The notes under the pieces are model-generated. The model worked only from the letters and a program-made list of their open reading frames with translations, had not been told where the DNA came from and made no database searches. The position numbers and the translations under genes were made by a program. From the IMG/VR virus record IMGVR_UViG_3300032302_000065: a DNA stretch of 64,000 nucleotides; one strand, written 5' to 3'. Positions 43,688 through 63,022 of the stretch are shown one piece after another (position 1 is the stretch's first letter; each line of letters opens with the position of its first letter). Source of the DNA: a virus. Its lineage: Duplodnaviria; Caudoviricetes.

Positions 43688-44875
43688 TTAGAACACTTCA
43701 TGATCAACTGCTGGCGCAGGTGTCACTTCCGCAGTAGGGTCGATACCCGCATCAATCTTGGTATACAAATCAAGGAATGATGTTTTGGTTTCTGCATCAA
43801 AGCGGTTGATACAGTACTTGATTGCATCCATCTTATCGTTGAAGATAGTGTATGCCTCGGCAATGTGAGACAAACGGCGAGTAGAAATCAATTCATCGAT
43901 AGCACCTTCTTCGAAAGTCTTACGAATGATATCAGCCCACTTCACAAGATTCTCTGCGAATGCTTTGTCATCAATACCAAGGCTGGTAAACAACTTAGTC
44001 AAAATCTTTGTTTCGATTTTAACATCAGGATATTCCTGTTCTACAGTAATTGGGAAACGCTCAAGAAACGCATCATCAAGAATTGTAGCGGCCATGTAAC
44101 GACCAGATTCATCACCTTTACCTTTAGTATTGGCGGTAGCGATAACGTTGAAACCTGTAACTGGTTCAACAAACTCACCAGTCTTCTTAACGAACAAACC
44201 TTTGCCTTCAAGTACACCTTGCAAACACATTAGTTTATTTGAACCACGATCAATTTCATCAAGAATCAAAACAGCGCCAGACTTCATTGCTTGAACAACT
44301 GGACCATCAAACCATTTTGTCTCACCGTCAATCAAACGGAAGCCACCAATCAAATCATCTTCATCAGTCTCTGGTGAAATATTCACACGGAGACATTCAG
44401 TCTTCAATTGGGCACATGCCTGTTCGACCATGAAGGTCTTGCCGTTACCAGAGAGACCAGAAACGAATACTGGATAAAATTTCTTCGATGCAACAATGCG
44501 TTTCATGTTGTCAAAGAATCCAAAAGGAACGTATAAAGAATTCACTTTAGGAATAATTGCACCTTCTTGCATACGTGCAACGGAAGACATTTTTGCTACT
44601 GCCTTTGCAACAGGAGCCTTGATAGGTTCGGAGATTGGCATAGAGGGAACTGGAGTGGATTGCACTAGTGCGAGACCAGCCATGTTAACGTTAAATTCTT
44701 GGAGGGGCAACTGATACTTGCCACGACCAACTCGGTACTGGTCGGCTTCAAGCCAGAACTGGCGCTTGGTGCCAGTCTCTTCAGAAAGTGTCACCAATTG
44801 TTGGCGGGTTACAATGGCACCGAAACGTTTGGCGGCTTCGGTAACGAATGCAACTTTTTCACTTTGCGTAATCAT
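43688..44875 (-). CDS. MoxR/CobS-like AAA+ ATPase
   Basis: GLSGNGKT, LILDEID, ATANTKG, AFLERF, STRRL. Confidence 0.9.
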   Translation of the reverse strand: MITQSEKVAFVTEAAKRFGAIVTRQQLVTLSEETGTKRQFWLEADQYRVGRGKYQLPLQEFNVNMAGLALVQSTPVPSMPISEPIKAPVAKAVAKMSSVARMQEGAIIPKVNSLYVPFGFFDNMKRIVASKKFYPVFVSGLSGNGKTFMVEQACAQLKTECLRVNISPETDEDDLIGGFRLIDGETKWFDGPVVQAMKSGAVLILDEIDRGSNKLMCLQGVLEGKGLFVKKTGEFVEPVTGFNVIATANTKGKGDESGRYMAATILDDAFLERFPITVEQEYPDVKIETKILTKLFTSLGIDDKAFAENLVKWADIIRKTFEEGAIDELISTRRLSHIAEAYTIFNDKMDAIKYCINRFDAETKTSFLDLYTKIDAGIDPTAEVTPAPAVDHEVF

Positions 44876-44918
44876 AATATAATTTGCCTTTCAGTTAAAA
44901 ATCAATTTCAATACTAGT

Positions 44919-44947
44919 AGTATAACAGAGTATTTATGGTAAGTCAA
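44919..44947 (-). promoter_or_regulatory. sigma70-type early promoter
   Basis: TTGACT-N17-TATACT on minus strand. Confidence 0.7.
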
Positions 44948-44960
44948 GGGTTATTCAAAC

Positions 44961-44978
44961 TGTTGTTTTTACGCAACA
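44961..44978. promoter_or_regulatory. palindromic operator TGTTG-N8-CAACA
   Basis: TGTTGTTTTTACGCAACA. Confidence 0.55.
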
Positions 44979-47168
44979 TTAAGCAATTTCCTTGATTACT
45001 TTAGAGAGAAGAACACGATTAGTCAAACGGTTTTGGTTCATTTTCAAGAATGCGCCTTTCAACTTACGTGCGGAAACATCTTTGGCTTCGCCAAGAATGT
45101 CTGATAGCGAATCATCTTCGGTAGACAAATCATCACCACCAGGAATCAGAAAATATTCTGAGTAGCCATATCCGTTAACAGAGAAGAATTTCTCATTACG
45201 GAATTGTTTGTACTTATCTTCTGTCATTATCATGTTGAAACGATCCATTGCATTTTGGAAGTAACGTTTGCTTTTTGGCAGAATGTAGAATCCAATCAAA
45301 TTGCAACCAGTACGATCCTTTAGAATTTCCAACAGAGTAGGTGTTACACCTTTGTCACTTACACGATAAGTTTTTGCTGAATCTTTATCTTCAATGTAAG
45401 ATACTGATCGGCGGTCAGAAGGTCCGATACGCTGGTGGCTATGTCCCAATTCATCATCGGTCCAAAGAGTAGTGGAATCTTCTCCGTCAGTCAAAAAGAT
45501 AACATTCACAATTTCTGACCGAGTGCGTTTACGGAAATCATTCACAACATTAGATGCAACTTGAATTGTCGCATTCAACGGAGTACCACCAAGTTTCATA
45601 TTATCACAGATAAAATTGGACTTGTAATTTCTACGGTGATTTACATAGGGCTGATATGCCTCGGCCACTTGCAACAAGTCATTTGCAAATTTGCGATATG
45701 TTGCATTCTTCATACTGCTAGACAAAATGTTTAACAGAGAAAAATTATCAATTTGCAATTGACCATTTGTTGTAGGAACGTATTCTTTTCGAATTCCTTT
45801 ATTGCACTCAGTACTGAAAGCATAAACATCAAAAGGAACATTCACTTTGCGGCAGAATGTTGCCATTGTAATCAACTGTTCAATTGTGCCAGACATATTG
45901 TCCATCATAGAACCAGACCAGTCAATGAACATCACAATACCGTGATTCTTACCTTCTGCAACAGAACCAATCTTACGGAAGATATCGTCATTGAATTTGT
46001 AAGTATGCAACTTGTTGGTGTCCAATGTACCAGTATCAGAGACTGTTACACGGCGCAACTCAGCCGCTTTCTTTTTCATTTCGAATTCTTTTACAAGATA
46101 CGCAATTGGATTCTTATTCTTGGCTTCGAATTTTGTTAGCAAAGTAGAATCATAACGTTCATAGTCTCTCAACTCAGGATCATTGTAAAAGTTATCTTCA
46201 AAGAACTTCAATTCTTTAAAAGGAACAATATATTCTTTTACGTTGATTTGATTCTGGCTAGCAATCTTGCCGATGTAAATTTCTTTTGTCTCGGCAAGAC
46301 TCTTCAATGATTTTTGCAAACGTTCATCGGTTACAGACTTCACCTCATCATTGTATGCCCGCAATTCATTAGGCATAACATCTTCGAATGTTGGTGCATT
46401 GGAGTAACCATTGTCAAAATTTTCTTCTGGTTCTTCATCATCAAAACCATCATCAAAACCAGAATCAAAGTCATTTGGATTTTTGTCTTCATAGTCTTCG
46501 ATACCTTCACCGCTACCGAAACTATCATCATCAAAATCTTCATTGTCATCAAATTCGCCATCAGCCTTACGCTTTTCGAATTCTTGTTCGGCTTCTTTAC
46601 GTTTTTGTTCTAATTCTGCTTTGCAGAAATCATACAAACGTTCAGAGATATCTTTCACTTGTTCAAACGAATCTGCATTTTCAACTTCGTTAACGTATAC
46701 CATTTCTTCGGCATTGAATTTAATGCCTGCAATAGCACCAAGTTTAAAATGCAAATTGATTCTATCAATCAGCATCATTGCATTTACATCTTGACCTTTG
46801 ATGCCAAAGAAGTCACGTTCAGTAAATTGACGATACGCAATAGACATTGGTTTACGCAAACCAGGATAACGATCTTTGATTTTACGTTCAATACGTGCAT
46901 CCTCAACCACATTCAAAAATGTAGCATATCCAGATGAACCAGCCTTTGCGGCATCAACGTATGATTGTGGTGTGTCTAATGCGTGACCAACTTCATGCCC
47001 GACCAACAGGTCAGTTATTTCAGGTGTAACGTCATTTAGAATAGGAAGAGTAAGACGGCGATTCACGATATCGAATGATGCAGTTTGCACCTTACGATAT
47101 TCTACCGAAATATTCTCTGTAGCAAGTAACTTTGCTAAAGTGGATTTTGAAAGTTGTTTATTAAGCAT
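44979..47168 (-). CDS. metallopeptidase-like + VWA domain protein (CobT-like partner)
   Basis: HEVGH, EDARIE, acidic linker, DWSGSM MIDAS, GTPL, LTDGE. Confidence 0.85.
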   Translation of the reverse strand: MLNKQLSKSTLAKLLATENISVEYRKVQTASFDIVNRRLTLPILNDVTPEITDLLVGHEVGHALDTPQSYVDAAKAGSSGYATFLNVVEDARIERKIKDRYPGLRKPMSIAYRQFTERDFFGIKGQDVNAMMLIDRINLHFKLGAIAGIKFNAEEMVYVNEVENADSFEQVKDISERLYDFCKAELEQKRKEAEQEFEKRKADGEFDDNEDFDDDSFGSGEGIEDYEDKNPNDFDSGFDDGFDDEEPEENFDNGYSNAPTFEDVMPNELRAYNDEVKSVTDERLQKSLKSLAETKEIYIGKIASQNQINVKEYIVPFKELKFFEDNFYNDPELRDYERYDSTLLTKFEAKNKNPIAYLVKEFEMKKKAAELRRVTVSDTGTLDTNKLHTYKFNDDIFRKIGSVAEGKNHGIVMFIDWSGSMMDNMSGTIEQLITMATFCRKVNVPFDVYAFSTECNKGIRKEYVPTTNGQLQIDNFSLLNILSSSMKNATYRKFANDLLQVAEAYQPYVNHRRNYKSNFICDNMKLGGTPLNATIQVASNVVNDFRKRTRSEIVNVIFLTDGEDSTTLWTDDELGHSHQRIGPSDRRSVSYIEDKDSAKTYRVSDKGVTPTLLEILKDRTGCNLIGFYILPKSKRYFQNAMDRFNMIMTEDKYKQFRNEKFFSVNGYGYSEYFLIPGGDDLSTEDDSLSDILGEAKDVSARKLKGAFLKMNQNRLTNRVLLSKVIKEIA

Positions 47169-47950: not shown

Positions 47951-48478
47951 TCAACGGTCTATAGAGGCGTTTTTGGCAATTTTGGTTTCTACAATGCTTG
48001 TCAATACTTTTATGTCAAGATTAAACCATTCGCCTTTAATATTATATGGTTTTAACTCACATAAAATATCATCTTCAATTTGAAATATGGAATTCATCTT
48101 AGGACTAGTATAGTAAGTATAAATTTCTTCGGGTGAAGCGGTTTGTAATGCAGTAACTCTTCTTTCTATTCTTCCAGTTGTCATACCGACCTTATATGGT
48201 CCGTTTTTATGCCCAACGATGTAAATAATTCCTGATGTATTTTTTATTACATTAGCACCATCAAATTTTCTTTGATATATTTCTTTGCCTTTTCTACTCA
48301 ATCCCAATGATTTTTTTTCTAAGTTTTTTCTTTGGTGATAAGAGTTATAGCATTTTTTACATATGCTCTCACGTAATTCTTTATTGACGATTTTACCCAA
48401 AAAGGTATTGCTGAAATTATTTTCGTTTGCTTCTAGAATAGATTCACACGTAATGCATCTTATTGTGTTGTGTATCAT
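47951..48478 (-). CDS. GIY-YIG (T5orf172/MUG113-like) endonuclease with N-terminal Zn finger
   Basis: CITC...CKKC; IYIV...YKVGMT...RR...LQT...E....GEWF. Confidence 0.8.
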   Translation of the reverse strand: MIHNTIRCITCESILEANENNFSNTFLGKIVNKELRESICKKCYNSYHQRKNLEKKSLGLSRKGKEIYQRKFDGANVIKNTSGIIYIVGHKNGPYKVGMTTGRIERRVTALQTASPEEIYTYYTSPKMNSIFQIEDDILCELKPYNIKGEWFNLDIKVLTSIVETKIAKNASIDR

Positions 48479-48489
48479 AAGAGTAATAA

Positions 48490-49080
48490 TTATATAAAAA
48501 AATTATTTAGATTAGATTTCACAATCAAAGATCCATTTTTTTGTTGAGTATTATAATTGATAGACTCTATGAAAGTATTCAATGAATATTTTTCCGATAA
48601 TTCGAAATGGTTGTCGATTCCCATAGTTTGTATAGGTAAAAAAATATCATAGTGTCCATCATCAATCATTCTATCGAATACTTCAATAACTATTTCTCTT
48701 GCTTTTATTGCCTGTATTGAATTTTCTCTGAATGCAAACACCGCAATAAATCCCAATTTGTAATGTGGATGTTTTCTTTTTAAATCTATCGATGATCCTA
48801 GTGCTTCTTCAATGCGATTATTTTTATTTCCAGAAATACCTTTTGCAGTAAATGTCTTATACTCAATTGCAACGTTAATATCAGGAAAATGCATATCCCA
48901 ACTTTTTCTATTACGATATGCACACGTTATAAACGATTCTGGAATGCCTTTAGTAGGTATTCTCTCATTCAAGTAATCATTCAATTTACTAAAATGATTG
49001 TCACCTCTAATTTTAAAGGTATCTTGATCGGTGCCTACCGTATTCCAATAATGATTCAGCACTTCATTGATTGAAGTCAT
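48490..49080 (-). CDS. PaeR7I/XhoI-like type II restriction endonuclease
   Basis: KSWD...AIEYK...GNKNNRIEEALG...DL pattern. Confidence 0.6.
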   Translation of the reverse strand: MTSINEVLNHYWNTVGTDQDTFKIRGDNHFSKLNDYLNERIPTKGIPESFITCAYRNRKSWDMHFPDINVAIEYKTFTAKGISGNKNNRIEEALGSSIDLKRKHPHYKLGFIAVFAFRENSIQAIKAREIVIEVFDRMIDDGHYDIFLPIQTMGIDNHFELSEKYSLNTFIESINYNTQQKNGSLIVKSNLNNFFI

Positions 49081-50651
49081 GGCTTGTAAAAAACAAAAAT
49101 CGGTTCATACTTCAACCACATCCCGTTTACCTTGCAGAAGTTTTTTGCTTTAGGTAAACCAGTATCAGGATCAATACGATTGCCGCCTGGCATTTGTGCG
49201 AGTGCCATTTTGACAACACCTTTGAATTGCATACCGAGTGATTCCAAAATGTCTTTGCTATCTTTTTCAAGTGGCAACATGTCAGCACCAAACTTAGCGT
49301 CAGCAATATTCCAAAGTAAGTATCTGTCATTACGCAAATACTCAACAGCAGTCTCTAGCGTTGGACGCAAGAAGCCTTCACGCCATGCATCATAGCCAGT
49401 AAACTTTTTATACGATTGAGTTGGGTCTTCACTATACGCTTCCTTAGCAAAGTAAGGAGGGCTAGTGAACACCATGTCTAATTCGCCCTTGTACTTTTGG
49501 AACGAACTATCATCTCGGACAACTTCTGAACCAAGTTGAAAAATTTCATAAGTGTTGGACTGTTCAAACAAAACTCCTTCGTTCTTTGCGGAGTTATAGA
49601 AATTAGCCAAGTCGGCATATTTAGTACTAGGACTGCCGCTATCGCCATTAATAGTGTGATCGGTATTAGGATCAGTACCCACATAGTGTAAAGGAAGAGA
49701 AGTGCGAGAAGCCATAGCACCCAAAATGCGCCCACCCCAACCAGAAGAGGGATCGTAAACAACAATTCTATCTTGGTTCTTAACGTGTCTAGTAAATTTT
49801 TCATAAAGTAATTTTGCAGTCAATGGTGGGAAGTTAACAGCATATTGGCACCACGATACACGGAATGCTTTCAAGCCAACAGGAAAAATCTTTTGTCCAT
49901 ACTTGTACATACGCAGACGATATTTCTTCTGGTCATGCGACTTTATGTTCATTGTAGACTTAGATGGAATTGTCTCTAGAATATCTTGCGTCACTTCAAG
50001 ATACTTTGCACCTTTGAGTTCTTCGTTGTAGCCAGTATACTCCTCATCGTCATCACGACTCTCTACCCAATAGTCATAACCATATTGACGAATGTTGTTC
50101 TCTTCAAACCAACGAACAAAGTCATTGCCATTCTTAAACTTCACGTTATAAGAACCAACGTTGATAATCTCATTGACTTTGATTGTGTTTGAATATGCAT
50201 AGAATGAATCACGCTTGAAGTGTCGTTTAGAATACTTCAATGTCTTCTCAAGTAATTCATTTTTTAGAAAGTGGTCATAGATTGAAAGACCATCATCATT
50301 CTTAGTATAGTTGATACGTGTCTTCATCATAGTTGGGAACCATTGATTAGCCGCATTGCCAACTACGCTAGTATTTCGAATTACATCTTTTTCACCAGTC
50401 AATTCATCAACGTGTTCAAATTCGTGTACAGGAAATCCATACATCTCTTTGAATTGTTTTTTGATTGCATCTTCATCCCAACCAACTCTTGGTGGCTGAC
50501 CCATAGTGTCCCATGAATGTACAACTGCTTTACGCAAATCGATAAACCATTGACGAAATTCGTCTTCACTCATCCATTGCACTTCTTCAAATGTCTTGTT
50601 TGTTTCATGGTTCAACAACCAATCATTACGTTCATAAAAATGTTTTGTCAT
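49077..50651 (-). CDS. large amino-(N6A/N4C) DNA methyltransferase-like protein
   Basis: DPSSGWGGR (motif I), YVGTDPN, FTSPPYF (motif IV). Confidence 0.8.
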   Translation of the reverse strand: MTKHFYERNDWLLNHETNKTFEEVQWMSEDEFRQWFIDLRKAVVHSWDTMGQPPRVGWDEDAIKKQFKEMYGFPVHEFEHVDELTGEKDVIRNTSVVGNAANQWFPTMMKTRINYTKNDDGLSIYDHFLKNELLEKTLKYSKRHFKRDSFYAYSNTIKVNEIINVGSYNVKFKNGNDFVRWFEENNIRQYGYDYWVESRDDDEEYTGYNEELKGAKYLEVTQDILETIPSKSTMNIKSHDQKKYRLRMYKYGQKIFPVGLKAFRVSWCQYAVNFPPLTAKLLYEKFTRHVKNQDRIVVYDPSSGWGGRILGAMASRTSLPLHYVGTDPNTDHTINGDSGSPSTKYADLANFYNSAKNEGVLFEQSNTYEIFQLGSEVVRDDSSFQKYKGELDMVFTSPPYFAKEAYSEDPTQSYKKFTGYDAWREGFLRPTLETAVEYLRNDRYLLWNIADAKFGADMLPLEKDSKDILESLGMQFKGVVKMALAQMPGGNRIDPDTGLPKAKNFCKVNGMWLKYEPIFVFYKP

Positions 50652-51112
50652 GTTATTTGTTTTACTGTTATTCCGCATTTATTTAGGAAACTGATTCCTG
50701 CATCATCACGGTAGTCTTCACCGTAAAATACTTCTTTAATGCCGCTTTGAAATATCATTTTAGCACAATCCATGCATGGAGCGCAAGTGATAAACATACT
50801 TGCACCATCACCACTCTCGGTAGACTTTGCTAGTTTAGCAATCGCATTAGACTCCGCATGGAGAACTTCAGGTTTTGTTTTGAGTTCTGTTTTTTTTGTT
50901 AGAGAAAAAACGCCAGAAGAAATTTCTTCTTGGGTAATAAACATGTCTTCACAATTGTTGTCCCATCCACTTGGCATACCATTGTAACCGATTGAAATAA
51001 TGCGATCATCTTTAACAACAACCGCACCAACATGTTTACGTCTTGCGCTACTCAATTCTGCAAAGATTCTTGCAGTCTTCATATATGCGCCTAAATATTT
51101 TTCTTTAATCAT
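50648..51112 (-). CDS. dCMP deaminase
   Basis: VGAVVV, SIGYNG, HAESNAI, PCMDC. Confidence 0.92.
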   Translation of the reverse strand: MIKEKYLGAYMKTARIFAELSSARRKHVGAVVVKDDRIISIGYNGMPSGWDNNCEDMFITQEEISSGVFSLTKKTELKTKPEVLHAESNAIAKLAKSTESGDGASMFITCAPCMDCAKMIFQSGIKEVFYGEDYRDDAGISFLNKCGITVKQIT

Positions 51113-51362
51113 TTTCTTCTTTGTACTTTTCAGTCTGTTCAAAACGTTTTTCTTGAATCGTTTTTTCTTTCCATACTTTTCTAGGATTTGCACACATCAC
51201 ACAGTTAGGATTTCCGCAGTTCATTGCATGATGTTTAGCAAGTTCATGTGGTGTTTTAACTGGCACATTATGCGCTTTTGCAATTTTCAATTGCTTTCGT
51301 ATTGCATTTTCATCTTTAAGGATTCGTTTAGAATGTTTAAATTTATCTTCTTCTGTACTCAT
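51105..51362 (-). CDS. small basic Cys/His protein
   Basis: KHHAMNCGNPNCVMCANPR. Confidence 0.7.
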   Translation of the reverse strand: MSTEEDKFKHSKRILKDENAIRKQLKIAKAHNVPVKTPHELAKHHAMNCGNPNCVMCANPRKVWKEKTIQEKRFEQTEKYKEEND

Positions 51363-51385
51363 GTTTCGACTCCTTTGAATATTGA

Positions 51386-52150
51386 TTACGCTACATTCCA
51401 GATTAGTGCGCCTGGTTTCCCGCTACTCACTACAAACTGCCAAAGTTTAGCATCGTAGTATTTCTCAGATGGATATGGTGGTGCTTGACTCTCTTCAACT
51501 ACTTGGTCATACTTGTATGGCGAACGCATTGTCACAGCACGACCTTTTTCGTAGTCACTCATCTTATGTCCAATCTCTACTGCATATGCAGGCACATCAG
51601 GAAATGCCATTTGCAATCCACGATTCAATGTTCCGCTTGATGCAACAGTCCAAATCTCTTTTGGTTTGATTTTCAAATCTCTAGCGACTTTAACAATCGA
51701 TGCAAGCACAGATGGATGCTCTAAACCCAAAGGTAAACATTGTCTGCGCTTTGTGTCTTCTTCTTGGTAACGTCTTGCTTTTGCTTTTGTCACAGTAAGC
51801 ATACCATTGTCAACCCAATGAATAGTGCCTCCAAGGTCAAGCACTCTTTGCTGATGCCATGTAGGCTCTTTGCGTTTAGCCATGAAGAATGTTGCTTTTT
51901 TTCCATAGAGATTACACACATGTGTTAATGATATAGGACCCCAACCAACTTTGTTTGCACCACCAAAGACCCATTCGTCACATTCGGTAGTCTTCACAAG
52001 ATGGTCAATGAATCGACTTTTACTTCCATACTCTAACAAGTCATCACGCACAACATGAAAGCCGTTGTGCATCTCAACTATCGGTGCAGGATTTGGGTCT
52101 TTCCAATCTTTAATTATATCAGAAACTTCTTCAGGATACAAGCGACTCAT
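51386..52150 (-). CDS. PLP-dependent fold-type II enzyme (ACC deaminase/cysteine synthase-like)
   Basis: VVRDDLL..GSK.R (Schiff-base Lys), ASSGTL phosphate loop, YYDAK. Confidence 0.7.
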   Translation of the reverse strand: MSRLYPEEVSDIIKDWKDPNPAPIVEMHNGFHVVRDDLLEYGSKSRFIDHLVKTTECDEWVFGGANKVGWGPISLTHVCNLYGKKATFFMAKRKEPTWHQQRVLDLGGTIHWVDNGMLTVTKAKARRYQEEDTKRRQCLPLGLEHPSVLASIVKVARDLKIKPKEIWTVASSGTLNRGLQMAFPDVPAYAVEIGHKMSDYEKGRAVTMRSPYKYDQVVEESQAPPYPSEKYYDAKLWQFVVSSGKPGALIWNVA

Positions 52151-53231
52151 ACAGTTCTCCTTCAGAAATTGCATCGATAACTAAGTGAATTCTATTATCT
52201 GTTCCATTGTTGATTGCTTGATGTGGCTTACGTGTATCTAAGAACCACAAGTCTCCAACTTCCATATGCACCTTTTGTGGATTACCTTTTGTGTCCCACA
52301 CAGTAAAAATCATGTTTGGATTGGTAATGATTGGTATGTGTAGTCTTGCTAGTTTGCCTTTAGAGCCACCAGAGTCTTTATCAACTTGATCGGTGTGTCG
52401 TTCTAGTTCTCCACCGCCAGGTTTCAATTGCATGAAACGAACACGATGCACTTCTTTGTATTTACTCAACAACTCACGCACTTCAGGAAACATATCATAG
52501 AGTGGTGTATCTTGCAATTCAAATTTTACATCTTTGTTTTTTTCTTTCCAGTCATCACTCATCTCTGAAGGCTTTGTAATGAATTCTGGTTCTGGACGAT
52601 AACCACGTAGTGACAATGCAGACCATGCTTTGTCTTTGTTGTAGTTACTGTAATGATTTGTGAATGCAGGCAATGTTGCTAACTTGGCAGAAACAGATTC
52701 AATAAACTCTGGTGTGATTGAACCAATCTTTTTAATGCTTAGATATTCTGTTGATTCTACTTTAGGAAACGAACGTGGAATAGGACTGTTACTCTTAAAA
52801 TAAATCGCATGTACTTCTCCATATGTTGTAATCTTTGGACCAACATAACAGAAACCCAACTCTTCAGCCATTGCACAATGTTGTTTGTTCTCTGCCCATA
52901 CAGTCAACCAAAAATTATTTCCAACTATCATAGAAATTTTTTGTTTGATCGTATTAATGTTACCAGAAAGTTTTCCGATTGAAATATCACCTTTTAATTT
53001 TTTAGCAATAACTGTGTCGCCGTGCATTGTAATGTCCGATGCAACTTTGTTAATTGTCACATCAAGCATTGCATCATCAAGAACCATAAGAGTTTCGTTT
53101 TTCAATGACTCTGCAATGTTGTTCTTCTTATACTTTGCAAAAGGAGATAACGTATATGCATTGTAGTCTGCGTACTGTGCTTCAAGTCCTTTAAGATAGT
53201 CTATATCAAATCCATGTTGCCAAGGTTTCAT
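52131..53231 (-). CDS. GNAT-like domain fused to Asp/Asn beta-hydroxylase-type 2OG-Fe(II) oxygenase
   Basis: LTVWAEN....AEELGF..G (GNAT motif B); RVRFMQL, HTD, RLHIP, DTRKPH, RIHLVID. Confidence 0.7.
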   Translation of the reverse strand: MKPWQHGFDIDYLKGLEAQYADYNAYTLSPFAKYKKNNIAESLKNETLMVLDDAMLDVTINKVASDITMHGDTVIAKKLKGDISIGKLSGNINTIKQKISMIVGNNFWLTVWAENKQHCAMAEELGFCYVGPKITTYGEVHAIYFKSNSPIPRSFPKVESTEYLSIKKIGSITPEFIESVSAKLATLPAFTNHYSNYNKDKAWSALSLRGYRPEPEFITKPSEMSDDWKEKNKDVKFELQDTPLYDMFPEVRELLSKYKEVHRVRFMQLKPGGGELERHTDQVDKDSGGSKGKLARLHIPIITNPNMIFTVWDTKGNPQKVHMEVGDLWFLDTRKPHQAINNGTDNRIHLVIDAISEGELYESLVS

Positions 53232-53731
53232 TATTTTACCTTACGTTTTAGAATCATACGTTTGCGTAATGCACGTTGTGTTTCAAATGATGAAGCCTTT
53301 TGAGTATACACTTTTCCAATCATATGGTCAAATTCATGTAATGCAATTCGTGCAGTCATACCAATAAACTTTTCGGTTGTAGTGCTTCCATCTTCTTTCT
53401 GATAACGAATACGAACGCCATCTGGACGTTTTACATTCAAATACAGTAGTGGAAAACTTAAACAACCTTCTTTCATTACAAGTTCTTTATCTGATACATC
53501 TACAATTTTAGGATTAAAAATTGCAAAAGGCTCATCGCCAGTTCTCATAACAAAAACACGATATGGAATTCCAACTTGATTTGCTGATAATCCAAGCCCA
53601 TCACTCTCTACCATTTTATCGTGTAATGCTTGTGCGAGTTCTTTGGGATCATATGGAGGATTTGAAAAATCAAATTCAACACACTCTTGCAAAAGAACGG
53701 GAGATGTTTCTGGCACGAATTCAAGGTTCAT
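53231..53731 (-). CDS. def: peptide deformylase
   Basis: GLGLSANQVG, EGCLS, HEFDH. Confidence 0.95.
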   Translation of the reverse strand: MNLEFVPETSPVLLQECVEFDFSNPPYDPKELAQALHDKMVESDGLGLSANQVGIPYRVFVMRTGDEPFAIFNPKIVDVSDKELVMKEGCLSFPLLYLNVKRPDGVRIRYQKEDGSTTTEKFIGMTARIALHEFDHMIGKVYTQKASSFETQRALRKRMILKRKVK

Positions 53732-53920: not shown

Positions 53921-54574
53921 TTAAAAATTATGAGGAACAAGTTGAGAATTAAATGATATTGAAATTCTATCACTATCACTATTGTTAGTATTAACAAGAT
54001 GCTCTACCCAAGCTGGAAATATCACAAGTAAATTTGGTTTGCAATTAACATTGAGACTTCCAGGATATAATGTTTTTGGTGGAAGGTATTTACCATCCTC
54101 TGATGCTTTTATTTCTGGTATAAACCTTATATTTTGATGTATGACTTTATATGTTTCTACCATAAGCCTATTTGGATTAAGAATTTCTAATGATCCCGAA
54201 TCTTTTGGAGTGTCAATATAAAATACGCCAGAAAAAAGTGATGAACAATGCACATGCGCTTTATTATGTCCACCTTTTGGATTAATATTAATCCAAAAAT
54301 TTGCAACACATATTTGCTCTTGAAGACCAAATTCTTTACCAAAATTATTAAGTTCGATATTGATTGCTTTAATTAAATCTTTAAAATATCTAGCATCAGG
54401 GCTAGACATGTTCATATCTTTGCTTTGCCATGCGCCACCAGAATTAGAAAGAGTTCTTCCTTTTACGTCTTTATTCCGCATTTCATAACAAGACTTACGC
54501 AAATCATCTAAATCCAATTGCATCTCTTGAAATCCAACATATGTCGGAAAACTTTCTAATATATCAATTTTCAT
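53921..54574 (-). CDS. 2OG-Fe(II) oxygenase (TIGR02466-like)
   Basis: WININ..G.N..HVH, SGVFY, IFPAW.EH.V, RISISFN. Confidence 0.85.
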   Translation of the reverse strand: MKIDILESFPTYVGFQEMQLDLDDLRKSCYEMRNKDVKGRTLSNSGGAWQSKDMNMSSPDARYFKDLIKAINIELNNFGKEFGLQEQICVANFWININPKGGHNKAHVHCSSLFSGVFYIDTPKDSGSLEILNPNRLMVETYKVIHQNIRFIPEIKASEDGKYLPPKTLYPGSLNVNCKPNLLVIFPAWVEHLVNTNNSDSDRISISFNSQLVPHNF

Positions 54575-61690: not shown

Positions 61691-63022
61691 TTACATTAGA
61701 TTTGTAATTGCGATTCTGCGGTAGTAAATGTTCTTGTTAGAGAACGAGATTGTACCATCGGCTGCCGATGTTGCGAATGGGTTTGCGACCATACCGTAAC
61801 GTGTCTTGAAGCCGATCTTTGGTTGGAATGTGTCTTGACCAACTGCACGAACCATTTGCAATGGAACGTATGGGCAGTAGAACAAACCAGCGTCAAAAGC
61901 GGAAGTACCTTTGTAACCAATTGTTGCATAGTGTACACCAGATGTTGCGGCAAAGTATGGATCGATATAAACTTTGAAACGACCATTCAATACACCAACG
62001 AATGTGTTACCTGTATCATCAACGTTCAAGTTGTTAGATGCAAGTGCTGGAGTGTAATCTAATACACCAGCCATTTGTAACGCAGATGCTACGTCAGAAG
62101 AACATAGCAATACGTTACCTTTACCACGGCGAGTTGCTTTAGCAATCGCATTAGCTTCACGTTCTAATTGGAACATCAAACCTTTGAACTTCTCAACAGA
62201 CCAACGGCCGTTAGAGTCAACGTCAAGGTTGAAAGTACCAGCAGTTGTAACGTTCTCTTGTGCGCCAACTGTAGCAGACAAGTTAATTGTACGAACAACT
62301 TCACGGTTGATTTCAGCTAAGATTTCTGTAGAAAGAATGTTAGCCAATTCTTGTTCAGCGTCCAAACCATGAACTGCTTTCAAGTCTTGTGCTAATTCCA
62401 TTGTGTATTCTGCTTTCAAAGCACGGCTACGTGCAGTAACAGCAATCTTTTCGATGGAGAATGCCATCTCTTGGAAACCCTGACCAGAACCATCACCCAA
62501 TGCTTCAGCTTGTGCTGTAGTGAAACCAGTACCACGTGTGTACTCTGTACCAGCAGACAAGTCAGCAGGTGAAGAACCTGTTTGTGATTGTGCTGTGTTA
62601 GGGAATGCTGTGTTAGCTTCATCAAACAAGGCTTCTGTACCACCTTGTGTTTTGTAACGGCTACGCATTGCAAAGATCAAGCCTGTTGGACCTGTCATTG
62701 GCTGAACACCGCAAATGTCGTAAGCGATCAAGTTAGGTGCGGCACGGCGAACCAAGCTGATTAAAACTGGATCATAAATGTCGATAGAACCATCGCCTGC
62801 TGTAGAAGAAGATGCGCCCATGTTGTTAGCAGGTGCCGCTTCAGAAAGCAACGATGTTTGGTTACGATAACCACCAGAGCCTTGTGCGTCTTGACGGCAA
62901 GCAATTTCTTGGTTCTCAAGAAGTTGTGCTGTTACGGAACGCTTGTGGCTGCCTTGAATTCCTGGTAAGTCAGAATGGTCAAGAACTGGTGCCCATTTTT
63001 TAATAAGATTTTCTACGCTCAT
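61691..63022 (-). CDS. gp23: major capsid protein
   Basis: KWAPVLD, GVQPMTGPTGLIFAMR, LKAEYTMELAQDLKAVHG, FYCPYVPL, FKTRYG. Confidence 0.98.
   Translation of the reverse strand: MSVENLIKKWAPVLDHSDLPGIQGSHKRSVTAQLLENQEIACRQDAQGSGGYRNQTSLLSEAAPANNMGASSSTAGDGSIDIYDPVLISLVRRAAPNLIAYDICGVQPMTGPTGLIFAMRSRYKTQGGTEALFDEANTAFPNTAQSQTGSSPADLSAGTEYTRGTGFTTAQAEALGDGSGQGFQEMAFSIEKIAVTARSRALKAEYTMELAQDLKAVHGLDAEQELANILSTEILAEINREVVRTINLSATVGAQENVTTAGTFNLDVDSNGRWSVEKFKGLMFQLEREANAIAKATRRGKGNVLLCSSDVASALQMAGVLDYTPALASNNLNVDDTGNTFVGVLNGRFKVYIDPYFAATSGVHYATIGYKGTSAFDAGLFYCPYVPLQMVRAVGQDTFQPKIGFKTRYGMVANPFATSAADGTISFSNKNIYYRRIAITNLM

Follow-up and report, generated by a model that had tools for sequence, protein, structure and literature searches.

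The 64-kb stretch of DNA analyzed here (from IMG/VR virus record IMGVR_UViG_3300032302_000065, and referred to below as the window) is part of the genome of an uncultured T4-like myovirus and carries three genes whose products, P1, P2 and P5, most likely constitute a post-replicative nucleobase-hypermodification module acting on the phage's own DNA. P1 (366 residues, positions 52131–53231, minus strand) is a fusion of a GNAT domain with an AspH-type 2-oxoglutarate (2OG) oxygenase, P2 (262 residues, 51386–52174, minus strand) is a compact fold-type-II pyridoxal phosphate (PLP) enzyme and P5 (open reading frame (ORF) 49077–50678, minus strand, 524 residues from the ATG at 50651) is an SPPY methyltransferase (MTase)-like enzyme. 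These three linked enzymes probably make a complex base in DNA, independently of the known thymidine pathways. The new element would be the entry step, led by an S-adenosylmethionine (SAM) enzyme, whereas the families of the tailoring enzymes are known. We found no description in the literature of a DNA modification involving MTase-linked PLP, GNAT and oxygenase proteins, in keeping with a preliminary description of the region, made from its sequence, which had called the operon a candidate for an undescribed one.

Linkage of the three enzymes

The window proteins were mapped on 161 related viral loci, of which 60 T4-like loci span the interval from gp46 to P5. The gene order gp47–gp46–(pdf)–P1–(P2)–(P3)–(dCD)–P5, where pdf stands for peptide deformylase, P3 for a small cysteine-containing protein and dCD for dCMP deaminase, is kept down to about 45% gp46 identity, with a variable content. 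P5 is the constant element. It is preceded by P1 and P2 in 31 of the 60 loci, by P1 alone, often overlapping the P5 start, in 13, by only a stand-alone GNAT protein that is homologous to the P1 N-terminal domain and abuts P5 in nine, by a split oxygenase and a stand-alone GNAT protein in three, by P2 and a 339-residue ORF in three, and by nothing recognizable in one. A GNAT protein and/or a PLP enzyme accompany P5 in 59 of the 60 loci. The 339-residue ORF, which belongs to no detectable family, replaces the GNAT–oxygenase between the PLP gene and P5 in the three T4-like contigs concerned (L055:3492–4511, and also L078 and L079).

Fusion proteins extend this association beyond T4-like phages. 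An exhaustive search with a P2 profile retrieved about 1000 relatives, and fusions were studied in the 150 best representatives: 39 of these are at least 330 residues long (as compared to 262 for P2), and 19 contain a [S/C]PPY..E.Y(S/N).D domain, i.e. the extended motif IV of P5. Local BLAST and Pfam searches revealed a P5-type MTase, a P1-type AspH oxygenase and a PLP enzyme within one polypeptide in P0127 (1081 residues) and P0143 (1138 residues). P0134 has the organization AspH–YunG–PLP and is encoded directly after a 494-residue TSPPY MTase; P0126, P0128 and P0139 are MTase–PLP fusions, and P0261 is a PLP–ParB–MTase protein. In gp1 of Erythrobacter phage vB_EliS-R6L (R6L), the PLP domain (about residues 382–635) lies between the half of the MTase domain that bears motif I (241–381) and the half that bears motif IV (636–795). 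Microcystis phage Mae-JY30 encodes a ParB protein and a 294-residue CPPY MTase followed by the PLP gene, and a ParB-associated MTase is likewise encoded immediately next to the PLP gene in metagenomic contigs L167 and L169. Phage DNA-modifying enzymes are documented to have ParB partners (PMC13229309).

Given this conserved neighborhood and these Rosetta-stone fusions, P1, P2 and P5 are functionally linked, and we hold with considerable confidence that they form one functional unit, whose oldest core is the pair made of the MTase-like enzyme and the PLP enzyme. Conservation of the gene neighborhood, which the preliminary description had named as a check of its proposal, is thus borne out for these three proteins, which co-occur in T4-like contigs and are fused or adjacent in unrelated genomes.

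Three further observations concern the surroundings of the fusions. First, the 1081-residue MTase–AspH–PLP protein is encoded on a bacterial contig (L164, 5859–17765) within an island that also contains two serine recombinases, a PemK toxin fragment and a 397-residue WG-repeat protein, which suggests that the module also travels on bacterial integrative elements. Second, a fourth domain, YunG (PF24585), is repeatedly found fused to the PLP enzyme and to the partner MTase (residues 406–486 of P0134; L167:6714–8555; 9 of 20 long PLP-family proteins), with no match among the window proteins. Third, a gene for a PAPS-reductase-like protein, gp7, lies in R6L (L162, 1413–2456) about 1.4 kb from the MTase–PLP fusion gp1 and might be an additional partner in DNA modification.

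Features of P5, P2 and P1

Translation of P5 starts at the second ATG of the ORF (50651), where the homologues begin and where an ATGA overlap with the deaminase stop is found. A strongly conserved N-terminal domain of about 270 residues (around nt 49839–50651) is followed by a class-I MTase domain (around nt 49080–49838), an architecture that is constant across more than 370 P5 protein clusters. Motif I (DPSSGWGGR), motif II (D336) and motif IV (FTSPPYF..E.YS.D) come in the natural order and are invariant in 25 homologues; the SPPY motif is associated with N4-cytosine MTases. In the structural model (pLDDT 85), the folds nearest to the catalytic domain are those of Trm11/TrmN/Trm14 and METTL5/PrmC, which are exocyclic-amine MTases (Z 13–15.5), and also those of RsmC/RlmG. 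At the sequence level, P5 matches the PADLOC MTase_II model (E 1.5e-6), P5 and P0127 are both matched by models of DNA restriction-modification (R-M) MTases (PADLOC MTase_II, mad2), and the catalytic domain of P5 aligns with the PLP-linked MTase of Mae-JY30 (hhalign, 92%, E 7e-7). NCBIfam gave no match for P5, and a search of the PDB with its single sequence retrieved nothing. Foldseek and VIA searches with the whole model retrieved generic class-I MTases only, the N-terminal 270 residues being barely probed by them; with this domain, the ESM Atlas returned only unnamed viral clusters (score 0.82). Pfam searched at E≤5 gave nothing useful for the P5 N-terminal domain, for P3 or for the 339-residue ORF of L055. 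P5 is predicted to be the installer of the modification.

P2 belongs to phrog_7093 (E 3e-27 over residues 35–262), a family of which gp52 of Pseudomonas phage M6 is the founding member (E 2e-159). A profile of the P2 family compared with the PDB retrieved fold-type-II PLP enzymes at E values of about 1e-4, namely cysteine synthase, TrpB, serine dehydratase, DAP ammonia-lyase and ACC deaminase; the single P2 sequence retrieved nothing from the PDB, and neither PADLOC nor NCBIfam has a family for P2. K52 and G181 are invariant in 40 P2-family sequences, an SSGT loop is present, and the counterparts of K52 in the alignments are the PLP lysine of TrpB and K36 of gp52. When compared with gp52 by hhalign, the P2 family alignment matched end to end, over 221 columns (probability 98.9%, E 3.9e-17), the common features being the lysine and a C-terminal PFP...YD.K.W...WN motif; P2 is therefore nearer to gp52 than to any metabolic PLP enzyme. 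Biochemical work has established that M6 gp52 and its ViI counterpart gp226 use PLP to decarboxylate amino-acid:thymine conjugates in DNA, and the amine, once unmasked, is acetylated in PaMx11 by the GNAT protein gp48 (PMC8989533). By homology, P2 is predicted to decarboxylate an amino-acid-like adduct on a nucleobase. A role as a sulfur donor of the D-Cys desulfhydrase type was considered and rejected, as the full-length relatives of P2 are the gp52 decarboxylases. A distant relative of P2 in Pseudanabaena phage Pam3 adjoins aGPT-Pplase2 and a radical-SAM gene.

The AlphaFold model of P1 (pLDDT 92.8) comprises two domains. Residues 9–150 (around nt 52782–53207) adopt a GNAT fold, with 137 residues aligned to 2pc1 (VIA Z 12.2, rmsd 3.3) and further matches to 2fia (Z 11.6), SbzI (Z 11.1) and NAA60 (Z 10.7). 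Residues 157–362 (around nt 52146–52763) form an Fe(II)/2OG oxygenase of the AspH/proline-hydroxylase type (Z about 15; Foldseek match to 4p7w, E 1.4e-11). The Pfam model Asp_Arg_Hydrox (PF05118) matches residues 187–354 with 47.9 bits, for a cut-off of 22.6, and the H279-x-D281...H337 triad and the 2OG-binding R347 are invariant in 26 P1 homologues, so that score, HxD...H triad and 2OG-binding arginine all place this domain among PF05118-type oxygenases. At the β4–α3 position, where GNAT acyltransferases have the acyl-CoA pyrophosphate-binding loop Q/R-x-x-G-x-G/A, P1 shows the poorly conserved sequence KLSGNI. The stand-alone GNAT homologue L046:2827–3258 (81% probability to the P1 N-terminal domain by hhalign) has QGSGNA in its loop and scores 20.9 with Pfam Acetyltransf_1, for a cut-off of 20.7. 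P1 has no family in PADLOC or NCBIfam, and P1-homologous domains are found inside the fusion proteins P0127, P0143 and P0134. The closest homologue of the P1 oxygenase in a cultured phage is gp4 of mycobacteriophage LilMcDreamy (31% identity, E 6e-28), whose gene overlaps that of an amino-acid:DNA transferase (AADT). P1 is a predicted tailoring enzyme, which would acylate an amine and hydroxylate an amino-acid-like side chain.

With P2 homologous to gp52 and a relative of the P1 oxygenase encoded beside an AADT, both accessory enzymes belong, as judged from homology, to families that process DNA bases carrying amino-acid adducts. All three proteins are as the preliminary description had presented them: a GNAT-like/AspH-type fusion, a fold-type-II PLP enzyme and an SPPY MTase of about 524 residues with an N-terminal extension of about 270 residues.

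A proposed route to a modified base and its alternatives

The genes of the 5-hydroxymethyl-deoxyuridine (hmdU) route were searched for in five complete or near-complete relatives, two of which have terminal repeats; one is a 150-kb genome with direct terminal repeats whose P5 is 97% identical to that of the window. None of the five encodes an AADT (aGPT-Pplase2/ADDT, PF18724) or a 5-hmdU DNA kinase (HMUDK, PF18748). No ThyA-like hydroxymethylase (PF00303) was found above the cut-off in them, and no Tet/JBP protein (PF12851). A search of the relatives with the M6 gp51 protein gave nothing either, an outcome identical to that obtained with the Pfam models. As positive controls, PF18724 was found in M6, Pam3 and LilMcDreamy and PF18748 in M6 and Pam3. 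R6L and Mae-JY30 were likewise searched, and neither AADT nor HMUDK was found. The window itself encodes ThyX (RHRSFSFQEFSQR at about 16799), as the preliminary description had noted together with the lack of a recognizable hmdU synthase, 5-HMU kinase and amino acid:DNA transferase, a lack to which the five relatives conform. As the known installing enzymes are absent, the adduct must come by another route, most simply through the SAM-dependent P5; the different, SAM-enzyme-led route that had been proposed is therefore the most economical reading of the missing hmdU genes.

We lean towards the view that the module makes a DNA base adduct larger than a methyl group. Its exact nature is a matter for a more tentative proposal. 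P5 would flip out a base and install on it, at the N4 of cytosine or the N6 of adenine, a primary adduct, most simply the 3-amino-3-carboxypropyl (acp) part of SAM; decarboxylation by P2 would then yield a tethered aminopropyl amine; of the two domains of P1, the oxygenase would hydroxylate the chain and the GNAT domain would acylate the free amine as a cap; and the product would shield the phage DNA from host nucleases. The acp end of SAM is the simplest donor because the partner enzymes need a substrate bearing an α-amino acid or a primary amine, the side chains of amino acids being what oxygenases of the AspH/proline-hydroxylase type act on, and because the minimal systems consist of only an MTase-like protein and a PLP enzyme. 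TYW2 transfers acp from SAM on tRNA, and the MTase-fold spermidine synthases use decarboxylated SAM (dcSAM). P5 might thus be a DNA aminocarboxypropyl transferase, or an aminopropyl transferase if P2 acts first on SAM, with P2 decarboxylating on the polymer and P1 hydroxylating and N-acylating, to give a polyamine-like hypermodified cytosine or adenine. We offer this complete scheme as one candidate, on balance an unlikely one, and regard the specific acp or aminopropyl chemistry in itself as rather doubtful.

Several points weigh against a DNA hypermodification module of this kind. The target polymer, the modified base and the transferred group are all inferred. The solved folds nearest to the catalytic domain of P5 are those of RNA m2G/m6A and protein-Gln MTases, and the Pfam model N6_N4_Mtase (PF01555) matches P5 over motif IV only, with 19.2 bits for a gathering cut-off of 26.7. 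The GNAT domain of P1 has a degenerate acetyl-CoA loop (KLSGNI). The acp and aminopropyl transferases known to us need no PLP. The lack of the hmdU route is deduced from close relatives and not from the window's own complete genome. Finally, T4-like synteny is conserved generally, so that neighborhood alone is a weak argument and the fusions carry the case.

The alternative that fares best, possible though on the whole unlikely, is that P5, as an ordinary orphan DNA MTase acting on N4-cytosine or N6-adenine, only methylates, P2 and P1 being helpers or acting on something else (for instance, by salvaging or altering, at the enzyme, amino acids derived from SAM or S-adenosylhomocysteine, or by modifying another substrate that is brought to DNA). 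Its SPPY and SAM motifs are indeed those of amino-MTases, type II MTase models match it, and an XhoI-like restriction endonuclease gene abuts it in the manner of an R-M pair. A methylated base, however, would offer no α-amino acid to a gp52-type decarboxylase and no free amine to a GNAT protein, and plain methylation does not account for the GNAT and/or PLP proteins beside P5 in all T4-like loci but one; the nesting of a PLP domain within an MTase fold and the triple fusions point instead to one coupled reaction sequence.

In our view, it is improbable that the module is directed at RNA or protein instead of DNA (a tRNA, rRNA, mRNA or translation factor) and reprograms host or phage translation. 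The best structural matches of P5 (Trm11/TrmN/Trm14, METTL5, RsmC/RlmG and PrmC) would fit such a role, as would the frequent action of AspH-type/prolyl hydroxylases and GNAT proteins on proteins, the conserved peptide deformylase gene upstream and the biosynthesis of wybutosine in tRNA, which is generally known to follow the same logic of acp transfer, hydroxylation and amine capping. DNA is favored over these targets by the fusion or adjacency of homologous MTase-like domains to ParB_N, by the sequence models that match, which are those of DNA R-M MTases, by the only characterized relatives of P2, which act on DNA, and by the AADT/ParB DNA cluster in which the P1-oxygenase relative is encoded; the peptide deformylase, for its part, is absent from the non-T4 versions of the module.

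We give still less credit to the idea that the enzymes make or destroy a SAM-derived small molecule (dcSAM, a polyamine-like or an ACC-type compound, or else depletion of SAM as an anti-restriction or anti-defense measure) and modify no polymer. The strict conservation of the base-flipping-type [S/C]PPY motif and the ParB association speak for DNA hypermodification instead, and so does the closer relationship of P2 to gp52 (E 3.9e-17) than to metabolic PLP enzymes (E about 1e-4), even though P2 is similar to enzymes that work on free amino acids (ACC deaminase, D-Cys desulfhydrase and TrpB-type enzymes), free-proline hydroxylases are among the closest relatives of the oxygenase with a solved structure, and phage SAM-degrading enzymes exist. 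Lastly, it is highly improbable that unrelated auxiliary genes are simply kept together by T4-like synteny: the interval between gp46 and the CobS/CobT-like genes is a variable island with pdf, 2OG-FeII_Oxy_5, dCMP deaminase and homing-endonuclease-like genes, but the fusion or adjacency of the three domains in unrelated siphoviruses and bacterial islands contradicts this explanation.

DNA hypermodification by P1, P2 and P5 would resemble the thymidine pathways of M6, ViI and PaMx11 (Lee et al., NAR 2021/22; PMC8989533) in several respects: a fold-type-II PLP decarboxylase (gp52/gp226) and a GNAT protein tailor an amino-acid-like adduct on a DNA base after replication, the gene content is combinatorial with multi-domain fusions in metaviromes, and the products are tethered primary amines and their acetylated forms, as proposed here. 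Unlike these pathways, the module lacks the dUMP hydroxymethylase, Tet/JBP, 5-hmdU DNA kinase and AADT (in the relatives searched), has an SPPY/CPPY MTase-like enzyme as its invariant partner, adds an AspH-type 2OG oxygenase and probably targets the exocyclic amine of cytosine or adenine rather than the C5-methyl of thymine.

R6L gp1 and the Mae-JY30 trio share with the window module a homologous PLP enzyme (34% identity) and a homologous MTase-like core with the PPY..E.YS.D signature. They are two-component systems (ParB with a CPPY MTase and a PLP enzyme) that lack the GNAT–oxygenase and the 270-residue N-terminal domain of P5, and the PLP domain that is nested in the MTase fold of R6L gp1 corresponds to a separate gene, P2, in the window. 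The R6L and Mae-JY30 genes are annotated only as 'DNA modification methylase', and in the R6L genome paper gp1 is called a CcrM-like methylase, with the PLP domain unremarked (PMC5463345).

The LilMcDreamy gp1–gp4 cluster, like the module, includes an AspH-type oxygenase (gp4), but it follows the AADT route, and a PLP enzyme, a GNAT domain and an SPPY MTase-like gene are all lacking from it. In this cluster (L171, 1–3759), gp1 is a ParB protein, gp2, annotated as a queuine tRNA-ribosyltransferase, has as its sole Pfam match a weak one to Tet_JBP (E 0.002, 17.7 bits for a cut-off of 34.9), and gp3, annotated as hypothetical, is the AADT (PF18724, E 3e-12); gp1–gp4 therefore looks like an unannotated thymidine hypermodification cluster.

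Two analogies are looser. In wybutosine synthesis (TYW2/TYW5/TYW4) and in spermidine synthase, as in our proposal, a class-I MTase fold moves the acp or aminopropyl group of SAM or dcSAM, with 2OG hydroxylation and amine capping in the former; these enzymes act on tRNA or small amines without PLP, and the likeness is drawn from general knowledge and not from sequence. Phage Mu Mom is a GNAT-fold enzyme that makes N6-carbamoylmethyl-adenine. It illustrates how a GNAT-fold protein can help put a larger-than-methyl group on the exocyclic amine of a DNA base, as is proposed for the module, but it acts alone, with no SAM enzyme, PLP enzyme or oxygenase; it is likened here to P1 by its fold class. 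Mom is mentioned in PMC7824862.

If DNA hypermodification by the module is true, its consequences would be broad. All the amino-acid-derived DNA hypermodifications characterized to date start, to our knowledge, from 5-hydroxymethyl-pyrimidines; the module would give access to complex DNA bases by a second route, probably on cytosine or adenine, and many genes annotated 'DNA methylase' would do something else. Should the full acp or aminopropyl scheme hold as well, aquatic T4-like phages of a large clade would carry a new polyamine-like base, with two-enzyme versions in many siphoviruses and mobile elements. The module is abundant in metagenomes (more than 370 P5 clusters and about 1000 PLP relatives), and its simpler form has cultured carriers, Erythrobacter phages R6L and ZS04 and Microcystis phage Mae-JY30, which makes it directly testable. 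Such bases bear on the resistance of phages to restriction and CRISPR, on sequencing artefacts and on enzyme tools for the site-specific functionalization of DNA.

Neighboring genes and genomic context

The module region consists of five genes, all on the minus strand between 49077 and 53231, as the preliminary description had accurately set out. Each of the five is kept in dozens of IMG/VR contigs at 45–98% identity, which excludes chance ORFs and shows that the genes are real. Several junctions are coupled: TAATG between pdf and P1, ATGA between dCD and P5, and ATGA between P5 and the next gene.

Besides P1, P2 and P5, the region encodes P3 (85 residues, 51105–51362, minus strand; phrog_4499), a protein with a C-x4-C-x2-C motif, and dCMP deaminase (50648 to about 51112, minus strand; Pfam PF00383, E 5e-21; phrog_174, E 3e-50), both of which had been recognized in the preliminary description. 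Of the 60 related loci, 28 have the deaminase gene upstream of P5, and in others it is located at another place in the genome; P3 is restricted to the 21 closest of these loci, and both are missing from the non-T4 versions of the module. The deaminase is an ordinary T4-type nucleotide-metabolism gene, a bystander between P2/P3 and P5, and P3 probably stands outside the module. The hypermodification operon first proposed thus holds for the GNAT–oxygenase, the PLP enzyme and the MTase-like protein, which neighborhood and fusions link, and not for the deaminase and the small cysteine protein. Upstream, the peptide deformylase gene (53231–53731, minus strand; Pfam PF01327, E 1e-35) is translationally coupled to P1 and absent from the non-T4 versions; it is a common auxiliary gene of marine phages and a passenger here. 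As their co-occurrence is not conserved, dCMP deaminase, the cysteine protein and peptide deformylase were rejected as members of the pathway.

Downstream of P5 lies an ORF for a type II restriction-endonuclease-like protein related to XhoI (196 residues, 48490–49080, minus strand; PADLOC REase_II, E 3e-6; Pfam XhoI, E 7.5e-4, below the cut-off), whose ATG overlaps the P5 stop (ATGA). It is followed by a T5orf172/GIY-YIG-type gene, the two forming a cassette (47951–49080, minus strand). The window contains no CTCGAG sequence (the XhoI site), for an expected number of 4.9 ± 2.2. The endonuclease-like cassette was found in only two related loci, and this sporadic presence led us to reject the XhoI-like ORF as a cognate partner forming a type II R-M pair with P5.

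The T4-like character of the window is apparent from the gp23 major capsid protein (61691–63022), which shares about 65% identity with the capsid proteins of Methylophilales phage Melnitz and of pelagimyophages, and from the scaffold, UvsW, gp55-like sigma, gp46/gp47 and gp43 polymerase genes that it also contains. The 4.2-kb module region gave no blastn match among cultured phages; IMG/VR is rich in close relatives, among them a record of 150,107 bp that has terminal repeats.

Two further features flank the region. Between gp46 and the peptide deformylase gene, a second oxygenase gene of the 2OG-FeII_Oxy_5 type (53921–54574, minus strand; E 6e-21) is variably present among the relatives, with matches of about 30% identity. 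On the other side (43688–47168, minus strand), an AAA_5/CbbQ_C ATPase of 395 residues comes after a conserved 729-residue protein without a Pfam match; this pair, which resembles the CobS/CobT-like pairs of marine phages, is kept downstream in nearly all related loci.

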